Below, piece after piece: positions 14,001 through 60,412 of a DNA stretch of 64,000 bases. Both the position numbers and the translations under genes were made by a program. The notes beneath the pieces are model-generated. The model searched no databases, was not told where the DNA came from, and was given only the letters and a program-made list of their open reading frames with translations. The DNA is from a virus. The stretch lies in IMG/VR virus record IMGVR_UViG_3300032116_000144; one strand, 5' to 3'. The stretch's first letter is position 1. Each line of letters opens with the position of its first letter.

Positions 14001-17000
14001 CTTGATTTTGGTGACGTTAATCATCCTTATGTTAATAAGGTAACTGCACAAAAAAATGTAGAAAAAGGTGCTGTTTATATGATGATACCTGATAAATCAG
14101 GTAATATACTACCAATTAAGATATTTAATAAAACTCTTAATACTTTTCCTGATTTACTTGCAGAAGTAAGATCAATGGCTCTTTCATTTAAAGAAATTAC
14201 AGATGCCACACAAAGAAGAGAAGCAGTTGATAGAATTTCTGATATTGTTTCTATTAGTGATTTATATTATAGTCCTAACACTCAGTCTTATAATTTAGTT
14301 CTAACTGATAATAAAACTAAGACTATTAAAACTTTTACAGAGGAAAATGCTGTTGAAGTTCTAGGTCAACTCCGTGTTCAAATTGATGTAAATAAAATTA
14401 ATAGAACAGTGAATGGCGAAGCTTACAATAGTACTGTTTCTAAAAACGGATATATTGTAACAGATTTACATCCAGATTATTTTCACTCTACTAGAGTAAT
14501 TGTTGAACCTTACATTCCTGAAGTTGTTAAAGATGCTCCTATTTCAGAAGCTAAAACAACAGTTGAACATTCTAATATTGCAGGATTAAACGAAAAATTT
14601 TCTTTAAATGATGTAGATTTTGGAATTACGTCTATTGATTTAGGAGATATTGGGAAGTTTAAAGAAGCTACAGATGGAGATAATTATACTCCTTTAAATG
14701 AAGGAGAAATTCGTGCTTGGTTTGAAAAGAATTTACCACAAGTTCCAGTAGAAATTATTCCTCATTTAATTGAGATTAAGAAAAACGGTGGATATGCTTG
14801 GGGTATGTTTAAAGATGCGGCAATTATTTTATATAACGCAGCACCTAATAAAATAGCTTATCACGAAGCATTTCACGCTGTATTTAATCTATTTTTATCA
14901 CCAAAAGAAAGAGAAGCTATTTTAAATGAAGCTTCTATAAGATATGGTATTCCTAGAAGTTTTGATTCTGTAGATACTATTGCAAGATATAATGCTGTTG
15001 ATTTTCAACTAAAATCAGTTAATATTCTTTCATCTGATAAAGCTATTGAATGGTTTAAAAAGAGAGATAAAGGACAATGGAAAGGAGAACAATTTTGGCA
15101 AAAATTACAACAAGATTTACAAATACCTAAAGAACAAATAGAGTTACTTAAATCTTTAAGTGTAGAAAATCCTTATAATAGAGAAGAAATACTTACTTCT
15201 TTATTAGCTAATTATAGTTATACTGTTGAGATTAATACTGCGTTTGGTCCAGAAGCTCAAAAACAATTAGATGATGGAGGAGAAGGATTTATTTCAAATG
15301 GTGTAACTTATATAGTTGAGCAAGGGTATAATCGTCCTGAATATTTAAAAATAATAAATGGTGAACCTGTAAGTATTACAATAGAAGAATTTGAGCAAGC
15401 TAAAAAAGATTCTATTGTAAAAGAACCTACTAATATTTACGGTAAGGGTGGAATTAATTTAGTAGCTTCTCGTAATAATCCTAGAGAAGCAGAAATGTAT
15501 AGATCTGAGGATGGTTGGGTATATCAGGAATTAAAAATTAATACCCCTTTGATTACACCTTCTATAAAAGCCCACGCTTCTTTTGCTGATGATAATACTA
15601 TTGGTTGGATAAGATTGTATTACAATACAATTACTAAAGTTGTAGAAATACAAGAAATACAATCTGATTTGTTTCAGAAAGGTAGGGATAAGAAAAGTTT
15701 AGCTTTACAAGAATTACTAGACGTTGATTTTTCTAGCGATACTCCTAAAGAAATTTATTCAGGAGAACAAGAAAATCAATTTCTCCAACTTCTGAATAAA
15801 GACAACAACTGGGTTACATTCTTTATTAAATCTATTATTCAAGATAGTGCTAAGAAAGGTTATGAAAAGGTATTATTCCCTTCAGGTAATACAGCTAGTA
15901 AAGTTGAAGGTCACACTACTTTAGAAGAGTTTAAAAAGCAGAAAGAAGATAGGATTAAAGTTCTCGAACAAGAATTTTTTGATTACACTATTGAACAAGA
16001 TACAGATGGTAGATTTTATGTTGTAAATAATGTAGGTGAAAAAGGTGTTAGTTATAGTAAAAGAGAAAGAGCAGAAGAATTTATTGACAAAATTAAAAAA
16101 GATAGAGTTAAAACTCGTGAAGAAATAAACCAACTTAAACAAGAACTTGAAAGAGTAGAAAAAGAAGGGTTTGGTGCTTTAAAACCTATTTATAATTTCT
16201 ATGAGAATACTGTAGCTAATATTCTTAAAAAACAAGGATATAATCCTGTATTAATTACTGATGAATATGGTAATACTTGGCAGGAAATTACTTTAACTGA
16301 ACAACAAAAACAAGAAATAATTAGACTATCTTCTTTAGACAAATCTGTTTATAATACTAATGATTTAAAATTAGAAGAAAAACTAGCAGATGAGTTTATG
16401 GAGTATGTCCAAGAGGACGGTGCTAATGCAGATTCTTTATCTTACAATATACGACAGTTTTTTAGAAAATTATGGACTGCAATTAAATCAGTATTTAACA
16501 AAGTAGATATTGATACATTAATGTATCGAATTAATACTGGTTATTATAAAGATAAGCAACTTCCTGTTAAAAACACATCTCCCAAATATAAAGTTATAGA
16601 AGATCCTATTGTAGCTAGAAAGCGCGTAGCTATGATTAATTATCAGTTTTTTAAAGCTTTAGATAATTATAGAGCAAAAAATCCTAATTTTGAAGGATTA
16701 TCTGATACTAAACTTATTGAAAAAATTGGTAAGAACGATTATAAATTAGGTTTAATTACAGTATATGGCTCTATTCTAAATGGTCTTCGCCAAGCAGAAT
16801 TTAAATTACCTAATACTGACCCTAGAAAAGCTAAATTACAAAATCTGATTAATCAGTTTTTTGTAGAGAATCAAGATAAAGAAATTAGTGATGTTGATGG
16901 ATATTTTGGAAAAGCATTAGCTGATCTTAGACGCTATGGATTAAAGTATACACCAGAAGGTGAGACTAATGAACAAGTATTAGAAGATATAAATAATACT

Positions 17001-20000
17001 AGTTTTGAAGAGCTGTATGAAGAAGAGAATTTTGATACTATTCATGATAAAAGTAGATTAACAGAAAATCCTAAAGATAACTTTTCATATGATGTTCGTA
17101 AGTTTTTACGTAAACTAGAAAAATATAGTATTGTTAATGGAGAATTTGTTAAAGGAACCAGTGAAACTAATGATGATTTAGGATTTACTAGTTTTGCAAA
17201 TTACGATGAAATTGTAAATTTCTTATTTAATAATTTAGCTGATGTTAATACAACAAATGAAATGATCGCAAAACTTCAGGAGTTACAATATAAACGTCCT
17301 GAATTAAGAGATGTTGTTGTTAAGGCTTTAGCAGATGAACAGTTTAAAACTAAATTATTTGTTGCTTTTAACAAAGCGTATACTCCATTTTTAAAAGTAA
17401 TTCGTAATATTAAAGAACTAGAATTTGGTAATGAAATTAGCATGAGAGTATTTAATGCTAATAGAAAAAATATAAAACAGTTAATTATTGACGAATGGAA
17501 TACAAATTTAAAAAATTCAGCAGGCAATAATATAACTAAAAATGGTGAAATTGATACGGTAAAAGCAAAACAATATTTTGATGAGTATCAGAAAATAGTA
17601 GAAGCTATTAGAAAATCACGTAATATTACACAAGAACAAGCTAATCAACTTAGCACACTATTAGAAAATTTTGGCATCACTATCTCTCCTAAAGTATTTA
17701 TAAATGAGTTTATAGAAAGACCCACTTATTATAGTACTGAAGGACTTACAGCTGTTGAAAATTTATATAATTTTATAGGCGGACCTCGTTCTTTAACTAC
17801 TATTTTAACTTCTATTACAGCAAGTATTAATCCTTATGAAGGAGACACAGCCGAATCATCTTCTCTTATAAGCGTATCTACAACTGTTGCTTCAAATAGT
17901 CTTCAATTACATTTAGATTCTGTAATTAACATTGAAGGTGAACAAGTATATAGTTACGCACTTCCTACTTTCTTATCTAATTTAATTACTGATTTAAAGA
18001 AAAATAATAATAGAAAACAATTACTAGAAAACTGGTGGTTTAAATCTAATGCTTTTTTAAATGATTTAGATAAAGAAGAAAATTATGAATTAAGAGAGAA
18101 TTTTAGTCTAGCTATTCTTAATGGAATTAATTTATTTGACACTAATAAAGGTACGGCATTTAGTAAAATGACAGAAAAAGATTTAGCAATATCAGATATT
18201 GCTTTGTTTAATTCTGGAAAATTTGCATATTACAGAGTACCAATTCTTTCTGATAGTCCTACTTCACCTACTATTAGATTTAAAAAATATACTAAGCAAG
18301 AAATAGTAGATAACTTATATCAAGTAGCTTTAGCAGAAAAAGAAAGAATTGAAAAAGTAGATACTTATAAAGAATTAGGTATTAAACATTGGGAAACTAG
18401 AGGTAAAGAATATCAGTTTTTAACTATCTTTAACGATCCTAATATAGATATTAATAATATAAAAGCTGCTAAAGAAGCTATTACTAATTGGTTAAATGAA
18501 GAATTTAAAATAGAACTAGATCGTTTAACTACATTAGAAGTAATAAAAGGAGATCAAACTTCGTTTTTTGTAACTAGTAATGGTAATTTAGTAGATAATT
18601 TAAAAGATTATTTTTATAATAAAGTTCACGCTAATGTTAATATTATTCAATTAACATCTATTGATCTATCTTTCTATAAAGATTCTATTACATTTCAAAA
18701 ACGTAATGGTCAAATTTATAAATTAACAGATAGACTAGATACTACTGCTGTTTGGAAAGATGGTACTGGTGTTGGACAATATTATAAAAGTATTTATTTA
18801 AAAGATGTTAAAGAAGATACAGAACTATTTAAAAATGTAAATGTTACAGATGCTCAATCATTTATTCGTTTAAATAGATATAAAAACATAATGATTGGTA
18901 TTGGTAAATGGACAGATCAACACGAATCTACTTATCAAAAAGCACAGAAAGGAGCATGGAGTACAGGATTTTCTAATTTTCTACCATCTTCTATAAAGCC
19001 TTTTGCATTTACACACGAAAATATAGATGGTACTGATATAATTATACCAGTACAGCATAAAAACAGCCAAGCATTACTTACGCCAGCTATGGCTAAAGAA
19101 AATCCAGTATTAAAAAAATTACTGGATTACATGGATGCTAATAATATTGATGAAATTCAATTTGCAGACTCTGCTGTTAAAGTAGGAGAATACGGTGCAG
19201 TAACAGTAGAAGAATTTTTAAAAGGTGCAAAACCAGTTATTCACATCTTAAATAATAAGGATTATGGTATTCAGCAAAGAGTACCAGCTAAACATTTAGA
19301 TATTGAAGTATTACTTGGAACTCAGTTTAAGAAATTAGCTTTATCTGAAATTCCTGATAATATTGAAATTATGGGTATGAATAAACAAGAATTATTCAAA
19401 ACCTATCAAAAACTATTAACAGATAATATTATAGAATCTTATAATACTCTATCTGGTGAATTTCAGACCATTGAAAGTGTTCAAAAATTGCTATTAGAAC
19501 AAGTTAGAGATCGTGGTCTAAGTGAGTCTTATGCCGAAGCTTTAAAAATTGTAATTGATCAAGAAGGTAATAAAATATTTAATATTCCTCTATTTGATCC
19601 TATTCATGGTAGAAGAACACAAAATATTTTAAATGCTGTTATTCGTAATAATGTTACAAAACAAAAAATTGCTGGTGCTTCTCTTACTTTGGTTTCTAGT
19701 TGGGGATTAGATAAGAAATTAAAAATAGTAAAAAATAAAGAAGGTGGAGTAGAGTATATGGAAGTAATGCTTCCTGCTTATACTCGTAAGTTTTTTGAAT
19801 TAAAAGATAAGAAAGGTGAAGTAGATATTGAACAGCTTCAAAAAGAATCTCCAGAAGTATTAGAATTAATAGGCTATCGTATTCCCACAGAAGGATGGTA
19901 CTCTATTAAAAAAATGAAAATTGTAGGATTTACTCCCGATATTATGGGTAGTGTTGCTTTACTACCTTATGATATTACTACTATTGCTGGTGAAGACTTC

Positions 20001-23000
20001 GATATTGATAAAATTTACACTATTCTTCCTACTCTAGAAGAAGTAAATTGGAAGTTAAGAAAAGTAAAATATAATTTAGATAAACCTGAAACTTTATCTA
20101 AAGTTCAGAGAGATAATGCATTATTAGATATTATAAACAGTATATATTCTCATCCTGATATGTCGAGTAAAGTATTAACTCCAGGTGGATTTGATACTTT
20201 AAAAACTCTACATAATGAAATAAGAGATTCTTATGGAGCGTTGATACGTCAAGATAATATTATATTACCAAGAACAGAAAGTAAATATTTTGATATCAAT
20301 AGTAATGGTGGGAATTTAATTGGTCTTGCTGCTAATCACAATAGTAGTCATGCTCTTACTCAATATTCTAAACTTGGTTTAACACAATCAATTAGTTTTG
20401 ACGGAGAAAGAAGATCTTCTTTACATACTACGGAAACAACAGAGCAAGGAAGATCAGTAGGTCAAAACTTAGCAGAATTTTTAGGTGCGTTTGTAGATAC
20501 AGCAAAAGACCCCGTAGCAACTGGTTTAAATCTTAACTTATTTACTTTTGATAGTGTTGCTTTAATTATACGTGCTGGATTTAGTTTAAAAACAGCGATG
20601 TATTTTATTAATCAATCTATCTTAAAAAATCTAGTTAATCAATATAATAATCAAAATAAGTCAGAAGCAAAAGTTGATAAGATTGTAACAGATTTACGGC
20701 AACAACTTACAAAAATTATTGGAGATTATCCTAAATCTAAAATGTATGATTTAAGTACAAAAGAATTAGGAAAATCTTTTGTGAGTCTTGCTAATATTCC
20801 TGATCCTACTGCAAAACGTAAAGCAGCACTATTACAAGCTAAAGTTTTAGAAACTTTCTTAGAATTAAGAAAAACAGGCAAACAATTATCTGCTTTAATT
20901 AAAGCTTCAAAAGCAGATACTAATGGTGTAGGTAAAACTCTTGCAGAAAATACTCATTTTTTAGAAAGTGTTGGTAATGTAAGTAAACTAAAATCTTTAA
21001 CTGGAATTGATTCAGTTTTAAATATTCCTTTAATTGATATATCTATTGAATACGGTGTTAAAAAACCACAAGAGGAGATACTATCTAGATATTTTCCTTA
21101 TAATGGAAAACTATTTAAGACATTAGTTAATGTTTTAGAAAATAATAAAGGTCAAGAATTAACAGCAGATGAAATAAATTATGTATTTAATAACTTTATT
21201 CATTTTTATATAAGTGATTTTAGTTTCTTTGATGAGACTAAAAAATTATATTATATAAATGAATACCCTGCTAAATTTGTAGCATTAAAGAAAAAATATC
21301 CTGAATTAGAATTGATTAAATATCTTGCTGTTAAAAGTAAGAGTTCGTTTAATAACCTACAAAGAATTGAGTTTACTTCTGCTGCTACTATTAGTAATGA
21401 GCAGATAGAGCGATTACAAGATGCTTGGGAATCTATGTTAGGTTCTGATAATGTAGAGATTAAAGGAATGGCCAATGATTTATTAAACTATGCTTTTTTT
21501 ACTACATATTTAGGATTTAAATATACTGGATTTTCTCATCTAACTCCTATTAATTTCTTAGAAAACCTAAGAAATAAAGAGGATGTTTCTTATCGAGATT
21601 TTGTATATAGATTACAAAATGAAAAAGATAGTACGCATTTAATTGCAAATTATTTAGATCAAATATATAGACATAAAAGTACTTATAATACTTTACTTCA
21701 AACTTTGAAAAAAGAAGATGTAACTGTAACAAAAAAGAATAAAGGTGGTTTTGTTACTAGTATGAAATTTGACGAAGCTAAAAGTAGAAGTTTAGGTATT
21801 TATGATGAAGAAGGGAAAGTAATACGTAATCGGTTTTTATACGAAAATAGTAACGGTATCACCTATACTTTTAAATATAGTGGAACTACTAAAAATAATG
21901 AAACTGTATTTAATATTCAGGAAAATCTAGGATATGAAAACCATATTGTAGAGTTTGATAAATTAAATCCTGCTGAAACAAATATACCTTCTAACAAAAT
22001 CAAATCTATTAATGCTGACAGCTACTTCGATGTAGATTATGATTATACAACTTTATATTCTTTAGAAAATTCTCAACAAAACGTTAAGAAAGCAGATGAA
22101 AATCTTAATAATATATTAAAAACATTTGCTAGTTCTTTAGGAATTAAAGTAGAAGCACACGAAAATCTTAAATCTAGATTAGGTATAGATGCTGCTGGTG
22201 CTGCGGATATTTACAATAAACTTATTCTTATTTCACAAAATAAAGAAAATGTAAATACTCTTCCTGAAGAAATTGGACACTTTGCAGAAGCATTTACTAG
22301 AGGAACATCTTTTCACGATAGTTTAATGGGTTTAGTTCAAAATACTGCCGAGTATAAAGAAGTAGTAAATGAATATGGAGAGATTTATGCTGGAGATATA
22401 ACTACTTTAAAAAGAGAAACGATTGGTAAACTTATAGGAAAAGCTATTGTTAAGCGGTATAATGAAACTAGAAAAAACACTAATAACGTAGTACTTCAAT
22501 TCTTAGAAGCTTTATGGAACAGATTTATTGGTATTTTTAGAAAAGTAGATATAGCTGATTTTAATAAAGAAGTAAATAGTATTACAGAATATATTGCAGA
22601 ACAAATATTAGCTGGTAATACCAATATATTTACTAACAGAAATATTAAAATTGGAGAGGTATTTTATAAGTTAAGTTCTGAAAAAGACATTAACGATAAT
22701 ATAGAAACTCTTAAACTTGGTATTGATTCTATTTTTAAGAAATTATCTTTATATGAAAGAAAAGCTGGTAGTACCTACTTACAAAGAGAAAAAGACATTT
22801 TTGACAAATTAATAAAAGATCTTAATAAAGAGAAATATGAGTTAGGTTTATTAAGATATTTAGCTAATGCACGAATTGAATTGGATACAGTTGCAAAACG
22901 ATATAATCAAATCGGTGAAATTATTAAAAATGGAATACCTGAAACTTTAGAAGAAAAAAGAGAATTAATTAATACTCTTCGTTCTGCACAAAATTATGTT

Positions 23001-25739
23001 TTAGGTTTTGAAAGTACATTAGAAAAATTAGCAACAGATAAACCTTTTACGAATAATAGTATTAATGTTAAAGCTAGTGATACCTATGTGACTACTCAAG
23101 CTTTAAAAAATAATTATTTAAAATTAGGTAAAACACTTCTTGCTGATATATTTAAGTCTTTTTCATCTAATCCTAAATTAAAACAGGATATGGAAAAAGC
23201 ACTAGAAGTATTAGAAAAAGATATTTCTTTTACTCAACGAGGTTTAGATGCTTTAGCTGAATCCGGTGATCCTATTTTAAAAATTATTGATATTATTGTT
23301 AAAGACTCATTAAATAATTATAGAGTACCATTACTAGAAAAAGCAAAATCTATAGTAGATATGCAGCAGGAATTAGAAAAAGCTGGTATTAAATCTACTA
23401 ATTGGATGTATGAAAGAGATTTTGCAGGCAATCTTTCAGGTAGAATGATTAGTAAGTGGAATGTTGCTGAATATAATAAAGCAAAATCTGCCTTTTTTAA
23501 GTCTATTGGACCAAAACCAGAAGATGCATTTAAACAAAGAGAGTGGAATAGAAAAGTAGCAGAGTGGTTTAGTATTAATACTCAAGTAAATCCTAATTAT
23601 AAAGAAGTTTTAGAAAATAAGAAAAAGGAATTTATTACACGATATGGTCAACGTATTGGTATAAGGGAGTATAATGCCTGGGTTGCTAAAAATAGTACAG
23701 AAATATATAATCCTGAAAGTGGAGAGCGTGAACTTAGATATATTAAAGAACTTGCTGTTCCTTCTGATAAGTATTTAAGCCGTCAATTTGCAGAGATTGA
23801 AAATAATCCAGCACTTAAAGCTTATTATGATAAATATACTAATTTATTAAAAGAAGTAGAATCTCAATTACCTGAAGCATATAAACTATTTGGTTATATG
23901 CCACAAGTAAGAAAAGATTTCTTTGAAAGATTAGCTTTTGTAGATAAAAATGGAGAAAGAACTCTTAAATCTCCTAAAGATTATTTAAACGAAGGTAAGG
24001 AAACTATACTGGAAGCTTTTAAAAAGCAAGCTGGTGATGATATAGAGTTTGGATTAACAAAACTTACAGATGAAAAAGGTAATCCTGTAAATTTTGTACC
24101 TATGTTCTATACTAGACCTATTGATCCTACACAATTATCTACTGATGCAAGTTCTTCATTAATTGCTTTAGTTAACTCAGCTTATAACTATCAGGCTATT
24201 AGTAAAGTAGTAGATATGGTGGAACTATCTAAAGATATTCTTATTGAAAGAGAAATATTAACAGGTACTTTTGATCCTATTACTTACTTTAAAAAAGAAG
24301 GAGAAAAAGGTAAACAAATTACTATTAAAGGTGAAAATAGTAAAGCATTTGCACGTTATCAAGATTATATGGAAATGGTAATTTATGGTAATGAAAAGAA
24401 AGATGAAAAATTTGCAAAGCTTGCAGATACTTTAAATAAATATACATCTTTATCTTCTCTTGCTTTGAACGTTTATGCAGGTGTTGCTAACTTAGCTTAT
24501 GGTAATATAATGACTAGAATGGAAGCATTTGCTGGAGAACTTATTACTAATAAAGATTTATTAGAAGCAGATAAAATTTATTTAAGTGAATTACCTAGTA
24601 CTTTAAAAGATATTGGTGCTAGAAATGTATCTAATAAATTAAGCTTATGGAGTGAATATCATAATACACTGCAAGACTACAATAGAGAATTAAGAGACGC
24701 AAATACTGGTAGAACAAATTGGTTCTCTAGAATGTTTACTCAATCTAGTTTATACTTTATGAATAGAAGTGGTGAACATTATATGCAGCTTAAATCTTCT
24801 TTAGCACTTGCTCAAAGAATAAAAGTAAAAGATACTGAAGGAAATATAATGACTCTTTGGGAAGCTTATGATGTTGTAAATGTGGGAACAGAGGAAAATC
24901 CATCTTATAGACTTAAATTAAAAGAAGGATTGACAAAGGTAGGAGGAGAAAAAGCAACTGATTTATTTAAGAAAGAAGAAAACGGTAAGCCATTGACTCA
25001 AAAAGATGTTAATAGATTTATTAACAGACAAAACTTCTTAAATAAGAGATTACATGGTATCTATAATGATATAGATAAAGCAGCAGTTCATAGATATGCT
25101 ATAGGACGAATGGGTTTATTATTTAGAAAATGGATGAAACCAGGGTGGAACAGACGATTTGAAAAACTTACTTATAATGAGGAAGGGGAAATTTATACAG
25201 AAGGATATTACACAACACTGTGGAGAGTGTTAAAACGTTCTATTCTAGAATTGACAGAACTTAAAGATACTTTAGGAACTACTGACGAAACTATAAAAGC
25301 AGTAGAAAAAGCTAATTTAATCCGTGTTGCCACAGAATTTAGTTTTATGCTTGCTACAGCAGCAATAGCTTCTTTAGCTACTGCATATGCAGATGATGAA
25401 GATAATTGGGTAGCAGCATTTATTGCTTACGAAGCATTGAGAATACATTCTGAATTGCAGTTTTATAGTAACCCTCAAGAAGCTATACGTCTTGCACGTA
25501 GTCCTCTTCCTGCAATTCGTCAAATTGAAAAGTTACAAAGATTAATAGAAGTTTGGAATTGGAACGATGAAATGGAGAAAGGAAAGTACAAGGGATTAAA
25601 GAATTATGAGATTATAGGTATTGAATTAGTACCTTTTGCTGGTACTTACTACAATGCTAGAACTCCTGAAGAGCAATTAAAGTTTTTTAGTAATAATCCT
25701 CCAGTACTTGTGTCGTTAACTAACACTATAATAGAATAA
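11052..25739 (+). CDS. Giant 4895-aa virion protein; candidate fused ejection protein / virion-packaged RNA polymerase (two-barrel, DxDxD type) with a zincin-like HExxH segment
   Basis: Single stop-free frame of 14,688 nt, with consistent A-rich coding bias throughout. HEAFH (HExxH) at residues 1271-1275 (nt 14862..14876). DFDID at residues 2982-2986 (nt 19995..20009), resembling the DxDGD catalytic loop of crAss-like virion RNAPs / QDE-1-type polymerases. N-terminal Gly/Ala-rich hydrophobic stretches and long K/E coiled-coil regions. Confidence 0.6.
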   Translation: MSNINPFLSSGKETEEFNPFRYKADINPRSPIGGLRMTSDSRFLQGLTTDSNPNDVKAANQGFWSELGNSLVNFGGEVVLGAVEGAGYLNPLQLITTAFDSEKQFGNVISEWAAKKNEELQQDMFPVYNNTETADVSEWFFENFSSIGSAISLMIPAMAGTKALGATARAMRGHKLLKAIGVAEGSPVFNTATAGLETITMAGMSRHAENMMEATETYNTILEEAKQKGFSDDLAKQAAKEAAKSVYNKNWTLIMNDLVQFGMINKGWSTYSRKGKELALSNANKSTAKSILTQMGIEGAEEGYQFITAEEQAREVAQKYGIREKDYLSYPERLAKYATDENFLTSVFFGALGGGVFEVAGTAINNKFAKQQQIANELRDTEYQKQLAVFEGDKKKFLKIEQEESYRFIFELLEQGRADHAESLFQMMVDTKPADDISQEEAKEINAKGQWGLEQLKGFESYFNTVRKNNTGETMRFLLANKAGRNIKRASLDLRQQEVNKELGRLTEDFKLTSDLTKVLELSKDIESLEALKPEDLGIDKEIKDNLLKEKKDSYALFLETVKTNQSLTEDQVKEKLNQVDTSLLTQNTFLKSVEELQLAQLNKDATLASNPAKIQDKVNTLREETQNKELLTLTKKINKNTTEEELVQLKEAAKIINKDKEFKEALAVKVKEIQATASKIDEVNLEASLKTRWTDNSLLKAKEVQEITNLAILNGGIPENTVVDEKYIAERYNSDPVFKTKLNNYFKQSNSVVSVTKIDLKKEPTNSDGVDVNIKTKETTTQQNTVGYPTNPWKTASLEFKYENGSFTETENGLVLNTSSLSQKINWGALNRGEIPVGSTLYYEYDFNDSFNKGTIKGFEKIDANNAQIEIVYYKDNNKTETNRVILGAVPIWTETKNFGSKDNSNNLKAFKEKLWSEVLNTTNKIGRITLTPTTKLKSYESGPIHNLRQDSKPLEQNPLDIIGNNKLVLAIGRQKTNGQAYLDFGDVNHPYVNKVTAQKNVEKGAVYMMIPDKSGNILPIKIFNKTLNTFPDLLAEVRSMALSFKEITDATQRREAVDRISDIVSISDLYYSPNTQSYNLVLTDNKTKTIKTFTEENAVEVLGQLRVQIDVNKINRTVNGEAYNSTVSKNGYIVTDLHPDYFHSTRVIVEPYIPEVVKDAPISEAKTTVEHSNIAGLNEKFSLNDVDFGITSIDLGDIGKFKEATDGDNYTPLNEGEIRAWFEKNLPQVPVEIIPHLIEIKKNGGYAWGMFKDAAIILYNAAPNKIAYHEAFHAVFNLFLSPKEREAILNEASIRYGIPRSFDSVDTIARYNAVDFQLKSVNILSSDKAIEWFKKRDKGQWKGEQFWQKLQQDLQIPKEQIELLKSLSVENPYNREEILTSLLANYSYTVEINTAFGPEAQKQLDDGGEGFISNGVTYIVEQGYNRPEYLKIINGEPVSITIEEFEQAKKDSIVKEPTNIYGKGGINLVASRNNPREAEMYRSEDGWVYQELKINTPLITPSIKAHASFADDNTIGWIRLYYNTITKVVEIQEIQSDLFQKGRDKKSLALQELLDVDFSSDTPKEIYSGEQENQFLQLLNKDNNWVTFFIKSIIQDSAKKGYEKVLFPSGNTASKVEGHTTLEEFKKQKEDRIKVLEQEFFDYTIEQDTDGRFYVVNNVGEKGVSYSKRERAEEFIDKIKKDRVKTREEINQLKQELERVEKEGFGALKPIYNFYENTVANILKKQGYNPVLITDEYGNTWQEITLTEQQKQEIIRLSSLDKSVYNTNDLKLEEKLADEFMEYVQEDGANADSLSYNIRQFFRKLWTAIKSVFNKVDIDTLMYRINTGYYKDKQLPVKNTSPKYKVIEDPIVARKRVAMINYQFFKALDNYRAKNPNFEGLSDTKLIEKIGKNDYKLGLITVYGSILNGLRQAEFKLPNTDPRKAKLQNLINQFFVENQDKEISDVDGYFGKALADLRRYGLKYTPEGETNEQVLEDINNTSFEELYEEENFDTIHDKSRLTENPKDNFSYDVRKFLRKLEKYSIVNGEFVKGTSETNDDLGFTSFANYDEIVNFLFNNLADVNTTNEMIAKLQELQYKRPELRDVVVKALADEQFKTKLFVAFNKAYTPFLKVIRNIKELEFGNEISMRVFNANRKNIKQLIIDEWNTNLKNSAGNNITKNGEIDTVKAKQYFDEYQKIVEAIRKSRNITQEQANQLSTLLENFGITISPKVFINEFIERPTYYSTEGLTAVENLYNFIGGPRSLTTILTSITASINPYEGDTAESSSLISVSTTVASNSLQLHLDSVINIEGEQVYSYALPTFLSNLITDLKKNNNRKQLLENWWFKSNAFLNDLDKEENYELRENFSLAILNGINLFDTNKGTAFSKMTEKDLAISDIALFNSGKFAYYRVPILSDSPTSPTIRFKKYTKQEIVDNLYQVALAEKERIEKVDTYKELGIKHWETRGKEYQFLTIFNDPNIDINNIKAAKEAITNWLNEEFKIELDRLTTLEVIKGDQTSFFVTSNGNLVDNLKDYFYNKVHANVNIIQLTSIDLSFYKDSITFQKRNGQIYKLTDRLDTTAVWKDGTGVGQYYKSIYLKDVKEDTELFKNVNVTDAQSFIRLNRYKNIMIGIGKWTDQHESTYQKAQKGAWSTGFSNFLPSSIKPFAFTHENIDGTDIIIPVQHKNSQALLTPAMAKENPVLKKLLDYMDANNIDEIQFADSAVKVGEYGAVTVEEFLKGAKPVIHILNNKDYGIQQRVPAKHLDIEVLLGTQFKKLALSEIPDNIEIMGMNKQELFKTYQKLLTDNIIESYNTLSGEFQTIESVQKLLLEQVRDRGLSESYAEALKIVIDQEGNKIFNIPLFDPIHGRRTQNILNAVIRNNVTKQKIAGASLTLVSSWGLDKKLKIVKNKEGGVEYMEVMLPAYTRKFFELKDKKGEVDIEQLQKESPEVLELIGYRIPTEGWYSIKKMKIVGFTPDIMGSVALLPYDITTIAGEDFDIDKIYTILPTLEEVNWKLRKVKYNLDKPETLSKVQRDNALLDIINSIYSHPDMSSKVLTPGGFDTLKTLHNEIRDSYGALIRQDNIILPRTESKYFDINSNGGNLIGLAANHNSSHALTQYSKLGLTQSISFDGERRSSLHTTETTEQGRSVGQNLAEFLGAFVDTAKDPVATGLNLNLFTFDSVALIIRAGFSLKTAMYFINQSILKNLVNQYNNQNKSEAKVDKIVTDLRQQLTKIIGDYPKSKMYDLSTKELGKSFVSLANIPDPTAKRKAALLQAKVLETFLELRKTGKQLSALIKASKADTNGVGKTLAENTHFLESVGNVSKLKSLTGIDSVLNIPLIDISIEYGVKKPQEEILSRYFPYNGKLFKTLVNVLENNKGQELTADEINYVFNNFIHFYISDFSFFDETKKLYYINEYPAKFVALKKKYPELELIKYLAVKSKSSFNNLQRIEFTSAATISNEQIERLQDAWESMLGSDNVEIKGMANDLLNYAFFTTYLGFKYTGFSHLTPINFLENLRNKEDVSYRDFVYRLQNEKDSTHLIANYLDQIYRHKSTYNTLLQTLKKEDVTVTKKNKGGFVTSMKFDEAKSRSLGIYDEEGKVIRNRFLYENSNGITYTFKYSGTTKNNETVFNIQENLGYENHIVEFDKLNPAETNIPSNKIKSINADSYFDVDYDYTTLYSLENSQQNVKKADENLNNILKTFASSLGIKVEAHENLKSRLGIDAAGAADIYNKLILISQNKENVNTLPEEIGHFAEAFTRGTSFHDSLMGLVQNTAEYKEVVNEYGEIYAGDITTLKRETIGKLIGKAIVKRYNETRKNTNNVVLQFLEALWNRFIGIFRKVDIADFNKEVNSITEYIAEQILAGNTNIFTNRNIKIGEVFYKLSSEKDINDNIETLKLGIDSIFKKLSLYERKAGSTYLQREKDIFDKLIKDLNKEKYELGLLRYLANARIELDTVAKRYNQIGEIIKNGIPETLEEKRELINTLRSAQNYVLGFESTLEKLATDKPFTNNSINVKASDTYVTTQALKNNYLKLGKTLLADIFKSFSSNPKLKQDMEKALEVLEKDISFTQRGLDALAESGDPILKIIDIIVKDSLNNYRVPLLEKAKSIVDMQQELEKAGIKSTNWMYERDFAGNLSGRMISKWNVAEYNKAKSAFFKSIGPKPEDAFKQREWNRKVAEWFSINTQVNPNYKEVLENKKKEFITRYGQRIGIREYNAWVAKNSTEIYNPESGERELRYIKELAVPSDKYLSRQFAEIENNPALKAYYDKYTNLLKEVESQLPEAYKLFGYMPQVRKDFFERLAFVDKNGERTLKSPKDYLNEGKETILEAFKKQAGDDIEFGLTKLTDEKGNPVNFVPMFYTRPIDPTQLSTDASSSLIALVNSAYNYQAISKVVDMVELSKDILIEREILTGTFDPITYFKKEGEKGKQITIKGENSKAFARYQDYMEMVIYGNEKKDEKFAKLADTLNKYTSLSSLALNVYAGVANLAYGNIMTRMEAFAGELITNKDLLEADKIYLSELPSTLKDIGARNVSNKLSLWSEYHNTLQDYNRELRDANTGRTNWFSRMFTQSSLYFMNRSGEHYMQLKSSLALAQRIKVKDTEGNIMTLWEAYDVVNVGTEENPSYRLKLKEGLTKVGGEKATDLFKKEENGKPLTQKDVNRFINRQNFLNKRLHGIYNDIDKAAVHRYAIGRMGLLFRKWMKPGWNRRFEKLTYNEEGEIYTEGYYTTLWRVLKRSILELTELKDTLGTTDETIKAVEKANLIRVATEFSFMLATAAIASLATAYADDEDNWVAAFIAYEALRIHSELQFYSNPQEAIRLARSPLPAIRQIEKLQRLIEVWNWNDEMEKGKYKGLKNYEIIGIELVPFAGTYYNARTPEEQLKFFSNNPPVLVSLTNTIIE

Positions 25740-29000: not shown

Positions 29001-29249
29001 TTAAATGCTGTTATTCGTAAATTTTATGTTTTTAGAATAATAATTTAACATTGTTTTAACATCTCTAAATAATAATTCAAAAGATTTTAAATCACCTAGA
29101 TACTCCCTATTATAGCCGTCACAATTAACTCGATAAAAAATATTGTTTTTGTTGGTTTCAATAGACTTAATCCAACCTTTTACAAATCCTTCTGTATTAC
29201 TTAAAAAATAAACTTCGTCACCTACTTCATAAATTTCTATTGTTTTCAT
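29001..29249 (-). CDS. Hypothetical protein
   Basis: 82-aa ORF in the operon. Confidence 0.45.
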   Translation of the reverse strand: MKTIEIYEVGDEVYFLSNTEGFVKGWIKSIETNKNNIFYRVNCDGYNREYLGDLKSFELLFRDVKTMLNYYSKNIKFTNNSI

Positions 29250-29354
29250 ATTAATATTTAACTATATAAAATTTTTTACTTTTAAATTTAATATCTTGAG
29301 CTTTACATCTTTCTATAAATTTACTTTCTATTTCATCTAATATTTCTTTCATAA

Positions 29355-51109: not shown

Positions 51110-51207
51110 AAAAATGTACTTTAGAAAATTAAATAAAAAGGATCACTTGGTAGTTCCGTACACCCGCTATCTGATTAAAGAGAAATAGCAAAATCTCTAA
51201 CTAGTCG

Positions 51208-51292
51208 TACCATTGAGAGGAATCGAACCTCCACGTTCTTAACGAACAACAGATTTTAAGTCTGTCTTGTCTACCAGTTCCAACACAATGGC
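51208..51292 (-). tRNA. tRNA-Leu (anticodon UAA), type II with long variable arm
   Basis: Reverse complement gives acceptor GCCATTG/CAATGGT. D-loop AACTGGTAGA. Anticodon stem ACAGA/TCTGT with loop CTTAAAA (U33, UAA, A37). Variable hairpin GTTC-GTTAA-GAAC. T-arm GGAGG-TTCGATT-CCTCT. Discriminator A, no encoded CCA. Confidence 0.8.
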
Positions 51293-51311
51293 CCAGTGTT
51301 CAACTTATTAG

Positions 51312-51647
51312 TGGAGCAGAGGGGAATCGAACCCCTGTCCATAAATACTACATTATACAATTTATACAAGCTTTGGGGCTTCCCGATAGGAACACCTTCC
51401 ACCATCTATATTTGTTTAAGGTACATTATATAGAATTAAACCTGTTCAACTTAAACTAAGTGTTCTTTAAGCAGCTACACGTAGCTGAACACCTTCACTT
51501 TGTCCTACATTTACTCCTTGAGGAAACATAGGCACTACTTTTGCTTCTTTAGCAATCGTTGTTGTATGCGCATTTTCAGTAGGTACAACATACTTCCCTA
51601 CGCTTGATTATATAATATAACTATTCATGTCAAAACCAATCTGCCCC
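51312..51647 (-). ncRNA. ssrA: tmRNA (ssrA-like transfer-messenger RNA), about 336 nt
   Basis: 5' end GGGGCAGATTGGTTTTGACA resembles the canonical tmRNA 5' end GGGGCUGAUUCUGGAUUCGAC. 3' end GGACAGGGGTTCGATTCCCCTCTGCTCCA resembles the tmRNA 3' end (T-arm plus GCUCCA). 7-bp acceptor stem with G3:U70 (alanine identity). Internal reading frame ends GTA GCT GCT TAA (..VAA stop at 51468..51470), which sits in an 8-bp inverted repeat as in tmRNA helix 5. Confidence 0.75.
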
Positions 51648-56823: not shown

Positions 56824-57648
56824 TTAGGTATATTTTAACATTAAATTTACTTTATCAATTATCAGTTGACCAAGTATTTCTCTGCAAATATCTGCTGTTT
56901 GTTTTTGATTATTTTTATAAGCAGCAGCATAAGCAGCAGGAGGATCATTAACATTAGCATAAGCAGCAGCATAAGCAGTATCAGCAGCATAAGTAGCAGC
57001 AGCAGTATCATCAACATTAGCAGCAGCATCAGCAGTATAAGCAGCAGCAGTAGCAACAGCATAAGCAGCATAAGCAGCAGGATCACTAGCAACATAAGCA
57101 GGAGGATCATCAACATTAGCAGCAACATAAGCAGCATAAGCAGCATAAGCACCATAAGCAGCAGCAGAAGCAGCATCATAAGTAGATCTTGCAAAAGGTA
57201 CTAAGTCTTCTAATGTCATTTCCTCTACCAGACCAAATCTCTCTGCTGCATTAACCGCATCAATACTTCTTTGATCTTTCATTAAATGAATTACTGTTTT
57301 AGCACATCTAGCTTTAGCTAACGTTAGAGGTTTAATAGGTAAGTCTAATTTTTTAGCTAACCATAATAACCAGTCACCACGTTCTACTTTAGCTATTGTT
57401 TCTTCAATAGTAAAAGTAGATGCCCATTTTTGTGCTTCTTGACAAGCACGAAAGTCTTTAAGTAAATTCTGAAATGTTTTCATAGTCATCTTTTTAGGTA
57501 ATATAATGATTTGTTTTTCTAATTCAGCAGCTATCTTTTCTTCAAGCTTTTGCAATGCAGCTTGAGTAGCTTTATTGCTAATACTTTCTTTTGAGAAGGA
57601 GCACACTACCGACTTAGCCATCAATTTCTCAACATTACTTTTTGACAT
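56824..57648 (-). CDS. Protein with C-terminal Ala/Tyr-rich tandem repeats
   Basis: 274 aa. Helical N-terminal 170 aa. Then AAYGAYAAYAAYVAANVDDPPAYVASDPAAYAAYAVATAAAYTADAAANVDDTAAATYAADTAYAAAYANVNDPPAAYAAAY, encoded by GCAGCA/TAAGCAGCA 9-nt periodic DNA (about 56925..57180). Confidence 0.55.
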   Translation of the reverse strand: MSKSNVEKLMAKSVVCSFSKESISNKATQAALQKLEEKIAAELEKQIIILPKKMTMKTFQNLLKDFRACQEAQKWASTFTIEETIAKVERGDWLLWLAKKLDLPIKPLTLAKARCAKTVIHLMKDQRSIDAVNAAERFGLVEEMTLEDLVPFARSTYDAASAAAYGAYAAYAAYVAANVDDPPAYVASDPAAYAAYAVATAAAYTADAAANVDDTAAATYAADTAYAAAYANVNDPPAAYAAAYKNNQKQTADICREILGQLIIDKVNLMLKYT

Positions 57649-57873
57649 GGTTATAGATGTTTAAGTTAAATAATGACAGTTTTACACACTAGATTTTCTC
57701 AATGTAAAACTTGTAATAATAGCCCAGCCTAATTCAACAATCTATCTGTTCTAATCTCAGACTTGAAAGGTTATCTATGACTATTACAAGAGGTTTCAAC
57801 TTTTTATAGTCTAAGATTTTAATTTAATTTTAACTTTTTTTTGAAAAGAGATTTCTCTGCTTTAAAACAGTAA

Positions 57874-58227
57874 TTAAGGTATTCTTAAATTTCTTCTTAT
57901 TGCTTCTTTAACATATTTTTTATAGTGTAAATGCTTTAATGCTTTTTTACCTATTAAAAAATCTTCTTCATACCAAAAACTATCAGCATCAGAACCCCCA
58001 CCTTTTCTAATTCTAATTCCTTCTTTAGCTCTTTTCTGAATATATTTAATAGTATTAATAAGATGATTATCATCCATTTTAGGATAATCTTTTGATACAC
58101 CTCTAATATCTATAATTTTACCATCTTTACATTTATGTAATAATGGTTTTAGAACTTTAGGTGGAAAGTTTTCAAGAAACTCATCCCCCATTTGTTGTAC
58201 TCTATAATAATCTGCCATATCTCCCAT
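57874..58227 (-). CDS. Hypothetical protein
   Basis: 117 aa, basic. Confidence 0.45.
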   Translation of the reverse strand: MGDMADYYRVQQMGDEFLENFPPKVLKPLLHKCKDGKIIDIRGVSKDYPKMDDNHLINTIKYIQKRAKEGIRIRKGGGSDADSFWYEEDFLIGKKALKHLHYKKYVKEAIRRNLRIP

Positions 58228-59754
58228 AATCTTTAATGTTTAAAATTAATAAGAATAGTACTAATAAGTTGACTACTAGCTTTGAGTTTTAGTACGTAGC
58301 TAAACACTACAATTTCCTCTATATACATTCACTCTACTACTCTTAAATCTTTAATGTTTAAAATAAAACTACTAACTAATACAGACCTTATAGAGCAACA
58401 ATATACAATATACATTCGTATGCGACATATATCTTGTTATTCTATTCTTGTTAGTAGTTTTAATGTTAATAACTCTTCTGTCCAATTTTCTAGTTGGAAT
58501 AGTTTATTCTTACATAGCATGGTAATTTAATACCTACATTACTTGTCAATTCAAGTAGAACGTTCAGAACTTACTATCTCTACAACAAACATTAACTGCT
58601 GGAACAGAACTATAACTCGGTACTTACGCCAAATCTCCGATAGTTTTTGTTTTGGAGATATATAGTTGTTTGTCTTCAAGCAGAAGAGTTAAATCTTTAT
58701 ATCAATCTCCAAGTAATACCATTACTAAAAGTTTGATACATACTTCCATTGTTGTTATTGGTATCTATCTTTATCGTCAACATATTTTAAGTATGTTAGC
58801 ACCCTTTAATTACTAGGCACAATTTAACGTAGCTAATATATTAAGTAGGGTCATGTAGTTGATTGTATGGACGAGACAATCTGCTATTTAACTACTTGCT
58901 GAGAACTCATTTGTGTTGGGTATGTTCTTCCTTTTGGGAAGTTTCCTTTACTATCCTTTCTCAAGGGAACAACACATCTAGCTTTACAGCATTAATAGAT
59001 ATCGGTTTTACGATGCTCTATTAACATCCTATTAATTCAGGATTAGTATCTTTATGTGAATTAAGCTTTTTGACTTATTGACGTTGCATTGCTACACAAA
59101 CCTATTCACAAAGGATCAATGTTTAGCCTATTATCTAGATTATTTTTATTTTACCAGATTTAAGGAAGATAAAGAACAGTTTATAAGTTGGTTACTACAA
59201 TTCAGCAGACATTTGTCGTAGGATTAGATACTCTAATTTACCTAGCTCTCCATTAGAAGAATGACTTCTATCTTTAGTTCTAAATCTACCTGTAGATCAT
59301 TATGTCTTTTTCATAGTTTTATTTCATAATTATCTCAATCAGTTTTTAAAGTTGGTAGTGTGTTAGAGTCGTTTAACGTCTCGCTATATCACCAGCTACT
59401 CTTTCTCTACCAACCTTGTTCTCAAAATAACACTTACTACAAAAAGCTCTATGATAACACGACATACTTTTCATACAATATAATTTATCCTTGACACCAA
59501 ATGTGGTCTGCTTCAAATGCTTCTTCCTCTCTAAACCAGAAGTATTTAATAGTGTCTTTTGAAATCCTAACTTTTGTTATGAAGTCATCTTCACCCATTA
59601 TCGCAACGCAAACAGAACTCATTTTATCAAACCAATTTATTTCTACTCTTCGTAGGACGGTTTATCTGTTAGTCGTTTTTAAATTTTAAAACCTTATTTC
59701 ATCATTCTAATCAAGTTCGTGCTATTTCCGGCCACTATCTGTTAAAGTCCGTTT

Positions 59755-59958
59755 TTATATTTTTTCAAATACATCAATTAATTCATTCAGTTCTTTAAAT
59801 AACTTACTATGATTTTCATTAATCATGTAATTATTTACTGTATCTATATCAACTTTACAAGTATCTTGCATTAGTTGATACATATATTCAGTAGACTTAT
59901 CTTCATGATCACATAATTGGTGTACTGCTGCAAGTTTAAGCTTAGTTATGTATTTCAT
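59755..59958 (-). CDS. Small hypothetical protein
   Basis: 67 aa, the only ORF >60 aa within the 58.2-60.4 kb ORF-poor region. Confidence 0.3.
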   Translation of the reverse strand: MKYITKLKLAAVHQLCDHEDKSTEYMYQLMQDTCKVDIDTVNNYMINENHSKLFKELNELIDVFEKI

Positions 59959-60412
59959 ATTTTAGGTCTTTCACCGTTATGAGCTACGCACTCTTTACAA
60001 CCTTAGAGCATCCTTCTGGGCAAGAATGTTTGTATGAGCGTTTCATAGGATAGTTTAGTGAATAAAAAATATTAAAAAAGATGGCTAACCCCGATTACAG
60101 CCAGCACCACACGGGAGGGGGCAGCGTGTTACATGGTAGGCTACAAACGTATTACTACTTGCCCTGTGTTGCCTCTCATCACCAACACTTCCACTTGTCG
60201 GCCATTGTTCTGCCAATCTCATTTGATTGGTGTCTGTACCAGAACTACACTGCTCGGCCACTGGTTTTCCCGCCATCTTTTTTAATATTTTCAGTTTGTA
60301 TTTCAAATATAGTTCATCTCTTAATAATCGGCACTGGTTATATTCTTGTTCGTTATGCACAATTAAGCAACGCATCAAACAGCTATAAGTGATTTTACAA
60401 GTTATTGTAAGT

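Follow-up and report, generated by a model that had tools for sequence, protein, structure and literature searches.

Two conserved structured RNAs on the minus strand of a 1.5-kb open-reading-frame-free stretch in a phage genome

The 64,000-nucleotide (nt) stretch of viral DNA analysed here (IMG/VR record IMGVR_UViG_3300032116_000144; hereafter the window) contains one region, positions 58228-59754, for which an initial annotation made from the sequence alone had proposed a large structured non-coding RNA (ncRNA) in the absence of any open reading frame (ORF) over 60 amino acids (aa). The region is non-coding and was found to carry, on its minus strand, two separate conserved RNAs, here called B and C, whose structure, family membership, strand and genomic habit were established by comparison with other phage loci. 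Read along the minus strand, the locus is made up as follows.

59958-59755, minus: 67-aa gene, the upstream flank of the ORF-free stretch
59754-59131 (624 nt), minus: module A, directly after the stop codon of the 67-aa gene
59130-58794 (337 nt), minus: B RNA, a structured RNA of a widespread phage family
58793-58691 (about 100 nt), minus: spacer between B and C, AT-rich with a GC content of 0.26, with the junction repeat ATATAAAGATTTAAC at its 3' end
58690-58471 (220 nt), minus: C RNA, a structured RNA of a second widespread phage family
58470-58228, minus: module D, with an AU hairpin and the leader of the 117-aa gene, apparently in duplicate
58227-57874, minus: 117-aa gene, the downstream flank of the ORF-free stretch

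At 1527 bp, the stretch is the longest in the window without an ORF of at least 63 aa; the runners-up at this threshold measure 548, 520 and 428 bp, the first of which contains a tRNA-Leu gene and a transfer-messenger RNA (tmRNA) gene. The limits given by the initial annotation were correct, with minus-strand genes at both ends. Its ORF limit of 60 aa was marginally exceeded by a 62-aa ORF starting at ATG (plus strand, 59501-59689) and by a stop-to-stop frame of 67 codons (minus strand, 59576-59376), and the longest ATG-initiated ORF on the gene (minus) strand is 45 aa. Each of the six frames contains 30-57 stops per approximately 509 codons (TGA 3-14, TAG 7-21, TAA 15-28), a density close to that expected from base composition (calculated as approximately 8.7% per codon). 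Because all three stops are frequent in all six frames, no single codon reassignment restores a gene, as had been argued. The random-expected stop density, together with the lack of any relative's protein matching the stretch, identifies it as non-coding. The plus strand is pyrimidine-rich as described (A 0.31, C 0.18, G 0.13, T 0.38), but the negative GC skew continues across neighbouring genes, so that it marks the transcribed strand and not the ORF-free stretch. The GC content of 0.31 does exceed that of the flanking genes (0.24-0.27), and that of the window (0.29), a rise due to modules A (0.32), B (0.34) and C (0.33).

Module B was recognised as a family through a related locus (L006), in which a 94-nt match to window positions 58978-58889 lies 5 kb away from the 67-aa gene. 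Members were gathered through an invariant 19-mer from this match, GAGTTCTCAGCAAGTAGTT, of which exact copies were found in 99 IMG/VR contigs; a search of 185,579 species genomes of bacteria and archaea gave 3 matches, in 2 contigs of metagenome-assembled genomes. Family members measure 262-505 nt and have a common architecture once their flanks are lined up. The 5' part consists of helix P1 with the loop UAAACAUUGAAU, P2 with a variable insert, the single-stranded UAAAGAUAC and P3, which has the loop AGUAAU and is expanded in some members, the window copy included. P4 encloses P5 (loop CUUGAGAAA) and a variable P6, and 3' of P4 come the invariant AAAU-GAGUUCUCAGCAAG, P7, which is variable at its tip, and GUGACCCUACUCUUAU ... 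AUAAGAAAGAGGGUGCUAA, which form P8. The elements that define the family, namely P1, P2, P3, P4/P5, the invariant GAGUUCUCAGCAAGUAGUU, AACUACGUGACCCUAC and the 3' AGGGUGCUAA, are all present at 59130-58794. Variants of the window copy are its P1 loop, given below, a P3 loop of UGUAAA and ACAUG replacing ACGUG.

59129-59112, minus: P1 hairpin of B, loop UAAACAUUGAU
approximately 59110-59050, minus: P2 of B
59046-58978, minus: P3 of B, expanded
58977-58909, minus: P4 of B, enclosing P5
58908-58890, minus: invariant stretch of B, GAGUUCUCAGCAAGUAGUU
ending at 58845, minus: P7 of B followed by ACAUGACCCUAC
58805-58796, minus: AGGGUGCUAA, in which P8 of B ends

In a 17-sequence alignment of B, 96.6% of cells in the proposed pairs were paired, compared with 39-45% when the 3' partners were slid; nine pairs have compensatory changes on both sides, and none of 500 shuffles reached any of the five measures. 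Each of the seven P4 pairs varies yet remains paired, with compensation in P4/P5 such as GUGUUG/CAACAC to GUGAGU/ACUCAC and UUCC/GGAA to UUGC/GCAA. At least seven compensating variants are seen in P3, and variants of P1 compensate as judged by reading the sequences. Strand-specific U-G and G-U pairs are present on the minus strand, and the minimum free energy (MFE) z-score of B is -2.71. The P5 loop UUGAGAA could also pair with UUCUCAG in a predicted pseudoknot, both sides of which are invariant and thus outside the reach of covariation. B would accordingly be organised as a 5' domain of three helices and a 3' domain built around a helix-enclosed hairpin, the loop of which would be pseudoknotted to an invariant single strand. 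A 137-position covariance model of the core (R2) finds a single copy in the window (58981-58845, 115 bits, E = 5e-26; the E-values of models built in this analysis are rough), and also finds B in L006 and in Cellulophaga phage phi14:2 (105 bits). In 100 loci gathered independently through the C pattern given below, R2 finds 13 B copies, and the core GUUCUCAGCAAGUAG is unchanged even in these.

The second RNA, C, is closed by a helix of two complementary 10-mers, AACUCUUCUG and CAGAAGAGUU, which are the ends of blocks shared with the related locus L005, and this helix leads into a U-tract. The core, CUUGAAGACAAACA ... AGCAGUUAAUGUUUGUUGUAGAG, is accompanied by two variable arms and by two hairpins, the conserved CUG-UUCC-CAG and UCCAA-CUAGAAAA-UUGGA, whose loops pair together. 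A degenerate pattern, AGCAGTT N2-3 GTTTRTTGTARA, gave at least 119 IMG/VR matches; among the matches listed, approximately 7 are due to chance and lie within coding DNA, and 69 are unique members of 155-272 nt. The family is defined by the 10-bp closing helix, CUUGAAGAYAAACA paired with UGUUURU, an AACUG-loop-CAGUU hairpin, UUGUAGAG and a 3' hairpin with a loop that pairs to the first loop. The window copy fits this definition, scoring 105 bits (E = 1e-17) across all 170 positions of a covariance model (R1), and belongs to an 'AAU-insert' subtype together with L005 (116 bits), L020, L144, L181 and L195.

The structure of C was predicted with RNAalifold from 26 diverse members. The closing helix with a 3-bp extension, an AUAAACA/UGUUUAU helix, the base of a variable arm and the 3' hairpin were recovered, and compensatory changes were found in 18 of the 28 predicted pairs. 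Inclusion of the conserved hairpin brings the number of pairs to 33, 18 of them with compensatory changes, and 97.1% of cells are paired; double-change cells number 113 against 35 expected, which none of 500 shuffles reached. Pair 17-122 is G-U in 26 of 26 members and pair 13-126 is U-G in 20 of 26, and because such G-U pairs are kept on the minus strand only, the RNA is read from the minus strand of the window. The 4-bp contact between the loops covaries as well (UCAG:CUGA in 26 members, CUAG:CUAG in at least 17, CCAG:CUGG in 2 and UUAG:CUAA in 1), with one mismatch in the window copy (CCAG:CUAG). The MFE z-score of C is -3.30, and its predicted fold would be a closed multi-helix junction locked by kissing loops. 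Comparative alignment had been proposed in the initial annotation as a way to look for covariation, and it bore this expectation out for both RNAs. Judged by the contigs in which their sequences occur, families B and C appear to be restricted almost wholly to phages.

The two families are frequently neighbours. Applied to the 99 loci that carry B, the C model finds 16 copies, every one co-oriented with B. B comes first in the window, L026 and L045, and C comes first in L075, L105 and L161; C without B comes directly after the 67-aa gene in L005 and L020, and L006 has B without C. Occurring alone or together, and in either order, B and C are separate modules and not domains of one RNA. RNA genes often flank both at a distance of 5-30 nt: on one side a tRNA 3' end adjoins B at P1 or C at its closing helix, and on the other the 5' end of a tRNA or tmRNA comes after AGGGUGCUAA or, for C, the closing helix. 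In five loci, the B 19-mer is followed at 170-260 nt by a tmRNA, and all tRNAs and tmRNAs detected near B are co-oriented with it. As ARAGORN overlooks many tRNA-like genes that bear inserts, such counts of tRNA adjacency are underestimates. Across phages, the flanks of B and C thus consist of tRNA ends, diverse ORFs or each other. Of 49 B members, 4 have variable arms tipped by a hairpin resembling a T-arm (of the GGUUCGAAUCC type), as do 5 of the 67 C members (for example L022, L029, L088 and L094, and L171, L199 and L226), compared with 0.1-0.2 in shuffles; the window copies have none. Further short conserved modules recur beside B and C, namely TAGCTAAGCTGTGTAAAGCACCAGATCTGATAAACTGTGTGAAGCTA before B (L043, L070, L080, L085, L108, L215), AAAACTACTTGAGTA...GGTCAATCAACAA after B (L037, L077, L094) and TTAGAGTTAGCTTATAGTAAAGCAGCGGGGGCTAACCTGCAG after C (L172, L186, L220), and suggest that still more small RNA families are present in the arrays.

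Association with tRNA islands, which had been anticipated from the behaviour of GOLLD and ROOL RNAs, therefore holds for the families, which are phage-borne and found beside such islands. For the window itself, the description 'near tRNA clusters' was loose: the called tRNA-Leu and tmRNA genes are approximately 6.6 kb from the stretch, and the two tRNA-like genes found 2.4 kb upstream of it, in the same orientation, are uncalled. The latter (62455-62303 and 62246-62104, minus), missed by both ARAGORN and Rfam, combine a 5' acceptor and D-arm (AGTCAGGTGGCGGAATTGGTA(G)ACGC) with a 3' T-arm and acceptor (CAGGTTCGAATCCTGTCCTGACTACA), the halves being separated by an insert of 75-100 nt. Genes of the same kind form five repeats in L077 (780-1760) and also follow B RNAs in several phages. 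The phage-encoded tmRNA, with the tag peptide VGQSEGVQLRVAA, stands beside tRNA-Leu(UAA) at 51207-51647 on the minus strand. Within 58228-59754, neither ARAGORN nor Rfam finds a tRNA or tmRNA.

Some B and C copies lie just downstream of a TAnnTTTG box, which we take to be the Bacteroidota -7 motif. These promoter-like boxes, together with the one cultured host, Cellulophaga, indicate that the hosts of phages carrying B or C are probably Bacteroidota. A short B-core query at E <= 10 against 50,697 phage records found B in a single cultured phage, Cellulophaga phage phi14:2 (Crassvirales). Its B copy occupies record positions 2911-3361, inside a 685-bp gap (2905-3589) between gp006 and gp010, where three tiny reverse ORFs annotated in GenBank have been removed by RefSeq. 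R1 also finds a weak C copy in phi14:2 at record positions 1285-1483 (45 bits, E = 4e-6; L121 1158-1356), which overlaps the tiny annotated ORFs gp003 and gp004; these two ORFs and gp007-009 are probably spurious. A second region, at approximately 4102-4600 of the record, holds a tmRNA that is diverged (46 bits, where the gathering score is 47; E = 3e-15), extends over 4031-4502 (L121 3904-4375) and is unannotated in GenBank.

Transcription of phi14:2 has been described: at the left end of its genome, two long intergenic regions (the 'g004-g005' and 'g005-g006' junctions) are transcribed rightward, their RNAs exceed most protein genes in abundance, and they are seen as early as the first time point, with levels that do not drop as those of other early transcripts do (Drobysheva et al., bioRxiv 10.1101/2020.03.07.982082). 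From the gene order and the gap lengths, the g004-g005 junction is probably the B region at 2905-3589, in which case a homologue of B is probably expressed in this phage. On this mapping, the long non-coding RNA (lncRNA) of that study, abundant, early, persistent and transcribed on the B strand, would be the nearest experimental description of B (bioRxiv 10.1101/2020.03.07.982082). The study assigns its lncRNAs no structure, family or boundaries and does not mention the C copy, and the second intergenic region holds the tmRNA and neither B nor C.

The main rival to a trans-acting role, at least for B and perhaps for C, is that of a cis-acting leader, for example an element for processive antitermination or a 5' element akin to a riboswitch, which would influence the polymerase or ribosome as it reads the tRNA, tmRNA or protein genes downstream. 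Whatever follows B always shares its orientation, be it an ORF of at least 50 aa starting no more than 120 nt from the B 3' end, as in 29 of 66 members (typically at 15-40 nt), or a tRNA, a tmRNA or C within tens of nt in others. The long invariant unpaired stretches would fit the binding of a conserved machine such as RNA polymerase, and those copies that lie just 3' of a TAnnTTTG box are placed as leaders would be. Antitermination and leader RNAs such as HK022 put and the EAR element stand at the head of co-oriented gene blocks, have conserved unpaired nucleotides and measure approximately 70-120 nt; B resembles them in its position upstream of diverse genes, but both B and C are much larger. 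To our knowledge, elements of the put/EAR type are not found within tRNA arrays or as abundant stable species. The ORFs downstream of B are mutually unrelated (28 clusters among 31 proteins), so that a metabolite riboswitch, which would be expected to precede a constant gene family, is unlikely. Also at variance with a leader, the phi14:2 intergenic RNA outnumbers most protein-gene transcripts and persists (bioRxiv 10.1101/2020.03.07.982082), B also occurs directly after tRNA 3' ends within arrays, and C is a closed domain running into a U-tract that is likewise found between tRNA genes, where the role of a leader is not obvious. A cis-acting leader is hence considered possible but unlikely.

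To relate the stretch to known RNAs, the 4227 models of Rfam 15 were searched at gathering score on the window, at E <= 10 on 57600-60400 and at E <= 1 on the related loci. In the whole window only the tmRNA (51309-51647) and tRNA are matched at gathering score, and at E <= 10 the stretch gives three chance-level matches and nothing else; the related loci give tRNA and tmRNA matches only. GOLLD, ROOL, introns and RNase P have no match in the stretch even at E <= 10. The search for GOLLD (RF01998) and ROOL (RF03087) that had been recommended was therefore negative, both in the window and in 18 + 5 related loci carrying B or C. A group I or group II intron was rejected: in addition to the lack of an Rfam match at E <= 10, the flanks of B and C vary between phages and the 67-aa gene is complete without splicing. 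No template/variable-repeat pair of a diversity-generating retroelement was found when the stretch was compared with the whole window, and no segment of the stretch is repeated elsewhere in the window.

It was also considered whether the whole 1.5 kb could be one giant ornate RNA of the GOLLD/ROOL type, with A, B and C as its domains. The modules lie on one strand, no recognisable promoters were found between A, B and C, the phage-borne, tRNA-island context of the families is that of GOLLD and ROOL (PMC12286853), and GOLLD too has a variable 5' and a conserved 3' part. Nevertheless, neither model matches the window or the 23 related loci, B and C, each with its own closed fold, are found apart as well as together in either order, and module A, about 40% of the stretch, has no conservation or folding signal. 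A single giant RNA is consequently regarded as very improbable. Of the large structured ncRNA first proposed, the conserved, covarying minus-strand RNA was confirmed, in the form of two modules of 337 and 220 nt in place of one.

Comparison with related loci showed the region to be a patchwork. Freshwater metagenomes commonly contain this phage, and 207 collection blocks index its 67-aa protein in identical form. Over 12 kb, seven independent assemblies (L012-L018) share 99.8-99.95% identity and retain the gap intact, but are too close to inform on constraint. In a lineage comprising L004, L005 and L020, whose 67-aa protein has 81% identity, the stop codon of the gene is directly joined to a segment matching window positions 58697-58458 in three blocks of 93-97% identity, compared with 85% in the coding gene. 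The intervening window segment, 59754-58698, is absent from this lineage. An imperfect 15-20-nt direct repeat is seen at both junctions of this extra block, with the two copies reading ATATAAA[AACG]GACTTTAAC and ATATAAAGATTTAAC, and the undisturbed L005 junction reads TATAAGACTTAAC. These sequences are consistent with an insertion in the window phage, or with a deletion between short repeats. Intermediate versions were sought through six 67-aa homologues (P0003, P0005, P0007, P0011, P0016 and P0032), and only the L005-like form or packed genes were found. Blastn of the 2.8-kb region against the 50,697 records of cultured phages gave no match at E 1e-5, and the DNA polymerase of the window phage is at most 29% identical to those of cultured phages. 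The window also contains a single ORF of 4895 aa (11052-25739, plus strand) that we take to be reminiscent of the giant virion proteins of crAss-like phages; any crAss-like affinity of the window phage is suggestive only.

Most diverged relatives carry packed protein genes directly after the 67-aa homologue. Intact protein genes at this position in relatives had been put forward as a sign of pseudogenisation, and they do exist, yet tblastn of every ORF in the related loci against the stretch gave no match. As the relatives' proteins have no similarity to the stretch DNA, replacement of blocks is indicated in place of gene decay. Module A has a random-like stop density, no similarity among approximately 240 fetched loci and no structure signal (MFE z-score -0.37 on the minus and -1.93 on the plus strand), and its only Rfam match at E <= 10 is a chance-level one to RAGATH-33 (16.5 bits, where the gathering score is 120). 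Within the module are an ATG ORF of 45 aa (59622-59485) and, ahead of UUUAAAAA, a hairpin of 65 nt (59415-59351). The frames of module A match no relative's protein, no PHROG family and, among 5.8 billion proteins, nothing but the 45-aa ORF of its own phage, which has no homologue elsewhere; there is thus no positive sign of a former gene. The spacer between B and C likewise has no homologues among the fetched loci.

Taken together with the junction repeats, with the L004/L005/L020 lineage, in which C comes right after the stop codon, and with the packed genes of distant relatives, filler from an insertion event is the most economical reading of module A. An even chance is given to the view that an insertion or recombination event introduced decayed coding DNA or neutral filler, devoid of a role of its own, which would make up the whole stretch or, at a minimum, module A and the spacers. 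It is inapplicable to B and C, on which structural selection is evident, and the retention of the stretch in the seven near-identical assemblies also speaks against it, though this carries little weight at such low divergence.

The 3' end of the stretch, module D, contains the following elements.

58469-58357, minus: AU-rich hairpin, AAAACUACUAAC ... GUUAGUAGUUUU, then AUUUU
58363-58346, minus: upstream copy of the 18-nt direct repeat UUUUAAACAUUAAAGAUU (families D1/D3)
58245-58228, minus: downstream copy of UUUUAAACAUUAAAGAUU, abutting the ATG of the 117-aa gene

The AU-rich hairpin corresponds to the inverted repeat I1, with 29-nt arms that are 76% complementary, and has a z-score of -1.23. 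It was missed by the terminator scan, and may be a candidate terminator of the RNA cluster, on weak evidence. Scans for sigma-70 promoters and for terminators gave results no better than shuffles. The two copies of UUUUAAACAUUAAAGAUU, an 18-22-nt repeat, are 118 nt apart; as the downstream copy abuts the ATG, it is read as the leader of the 117-aa gene and the upstream copy as a duplicate of that leader. A long non-coding stretch in a dense genome, ending in one direct-repeat pair of 18-22 nt and an AU-rich hairpin, might also be taken for a replication origin or a packaging (pac/cos) site, both of which had been listed as alternatives. No turning point of skew was found, as cumulative GC skew falls steadily through the stretch, its minimum lying at approximately 62.6-62.8 kb, and there are no iteron arrays, the only two-copy repeat being the leader of the next gene. 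Compensatory pairs and strand-specific G-U pairs are moreover the signature of an RNA and not of a DNA site, and an origin or packaging function is regarded as highly improbable.

The interpretation we favour, and hold to be probable, is that the stretch is a minus-strand cluster of RNA genes with two independent structured ncRNAs, B and C, which would accumulate as stable trans-acting RNAs. Phage tRNA and tmRNA genes share arrays, strand and spacers of a few nt with B and C, and processing of B and C by the same nucleases is therefore probable: in the arrays, B and C would most likely be co-transcribed with tRNAs and then released by tRNA-processing nucleases. In the window, where no tRNA is adjacent, the ends of B and C are accordingly undefined. 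Their invariant unpaired nucleotides may bind a conserved host or phage partner linked to tRNA or translation biology, and B and C would be functional analogues, not relatives, of GOLLD and ROOL. Module A, the spacer and the hairpin-and-repeat region would be filler, or a lineage-specific insertion together with regulatory DNA.

Several observations weigh against this interpretation. Module A, with neither conservation nor structure signal, makes up approximately 40% of the stretch. The window copies of B and C have no adjacent tRNA and no recognisable TAnnTTTG box upstream. In the 29 of 66 members mentioned above, B ends 15-120 nt before the start of an ORF, a position that suits a cis-acting leader equally well. 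P7, P8 and the pseudoknot of B are conserved without covariation, in part because members were gathered via an invariant 19-mer. The assignment of g004-g005 to GenBank positions 2905-3589 would follow from gene order and gap lengths, and the proposed link to tRNA or translation from the genomic neighbourhood and the T-arm-like hairpins in a minority of members.

A bolder reading of the same RNAs is that B and C are two new classes of ribozyme or of RNA-only assembly, active in host takeover by Bacteroidota phages, including crAss-like ones. They would then act on tRNAs, tmRNA, ribosomes or host defences that target tRNAs, as the counterpart of GOLLD and ROOL in phages of Firmicutes and Actinobacteria, and the near-invariant unpaired 15-19-mers around the B pseudoknot would form an active site or binding pocket. 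This reading is speculative and is given a low probability.

The RNAs closest to B and C in habit are found in phages and prophages, often by tRNA islands. GOLLD (RF01998) covaries, has pseudoknots and may contain embedded tRNA-like elements (PMC12286853), of which the T-arm-like hairpins in some B and C members are reminiscent. It is usually longer than 800 nt and has a fixed layout of variable 5' and conserved 3' parts, whereas B and C are shorter and separable. ROOL (RF03087) is likewise a phage or prophage RNA near tRNA islands, can be very abundant and has multiple pseudoknots and no known protein partner (PMC12286853). With approximately 580-660 nt and mainly Firmicutes-type hosts, it differs from B and C, which have other sizes and point to Bacteroidota. 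The shared habit applies at the family level, given the distances to tRNA and tmRNA genes in the window. From tRNAs and tmRNAs themselves, B and C are distinguished in not being tRNA-shaped, having no frame for a tag peptide and giving no ARAGORN or Rfam match. The searchable literature contains no description of the B or C core sequences, or of crAss- or tmRNA-linked RNAs like them; the text of a 2023 catalogue of 10,006 candidate viral RNAs (PMC10690425) does not single them out, and its unnamed entries may include them. By these sequence comparisons, B and C appear to be two undescribed families, without a match to an Rfam 15 model, within a known kind of system.

RNAs of the GOLLD/ROOL type, which are abundant, ornate and nanocage-forming, have long been a puzzle. 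B and C add two families of the same genomic habit with different folds and host range, each on approximately 100 or more viral contigs. As phi14:2 is a cultivable crAss-like model phage with existing RNA sequencing data, the role of tRNA-island RNAs becomes testable, and its lncRNAs gain identities, one as B (by the probable mapping) and the other as the holder of a diverged tmRNA. Small ORFs called over B and C regions in phage genomes are probably spurious, which should be heeded in annotation.

Further features were noted elsewhere in the window. Upstream of the 67-aa gene, at 60291-60066 on the minus strand, a perfect closing stem of 20-21 bp surrounds a 186-nt segment of 40% GC, with a TATATTTG box at 60311-60304, a terminator-like end, an MFE z-score of -2.69 and no Rfam match. 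This may be a further ncRNA, and the overlapping ORFs of 129 and 103 aa on opposite strands look spurious. The ORF-poor positions 29202-29349 have weak matches (62-69% identity over 65-119 nt) to 11 otherwise unrelated phage loci and may represent another conserved non-coding element. Finally, a 274-aa gene on the minus strand (56824-57648) encodes a long Ala/Tyr-rich repeat (AAYAAY...) and is overlapped by spurious ORFs in other frames, and in the otherwise near-identical strain L013, window positions 57175-56787 within this gene are missing.

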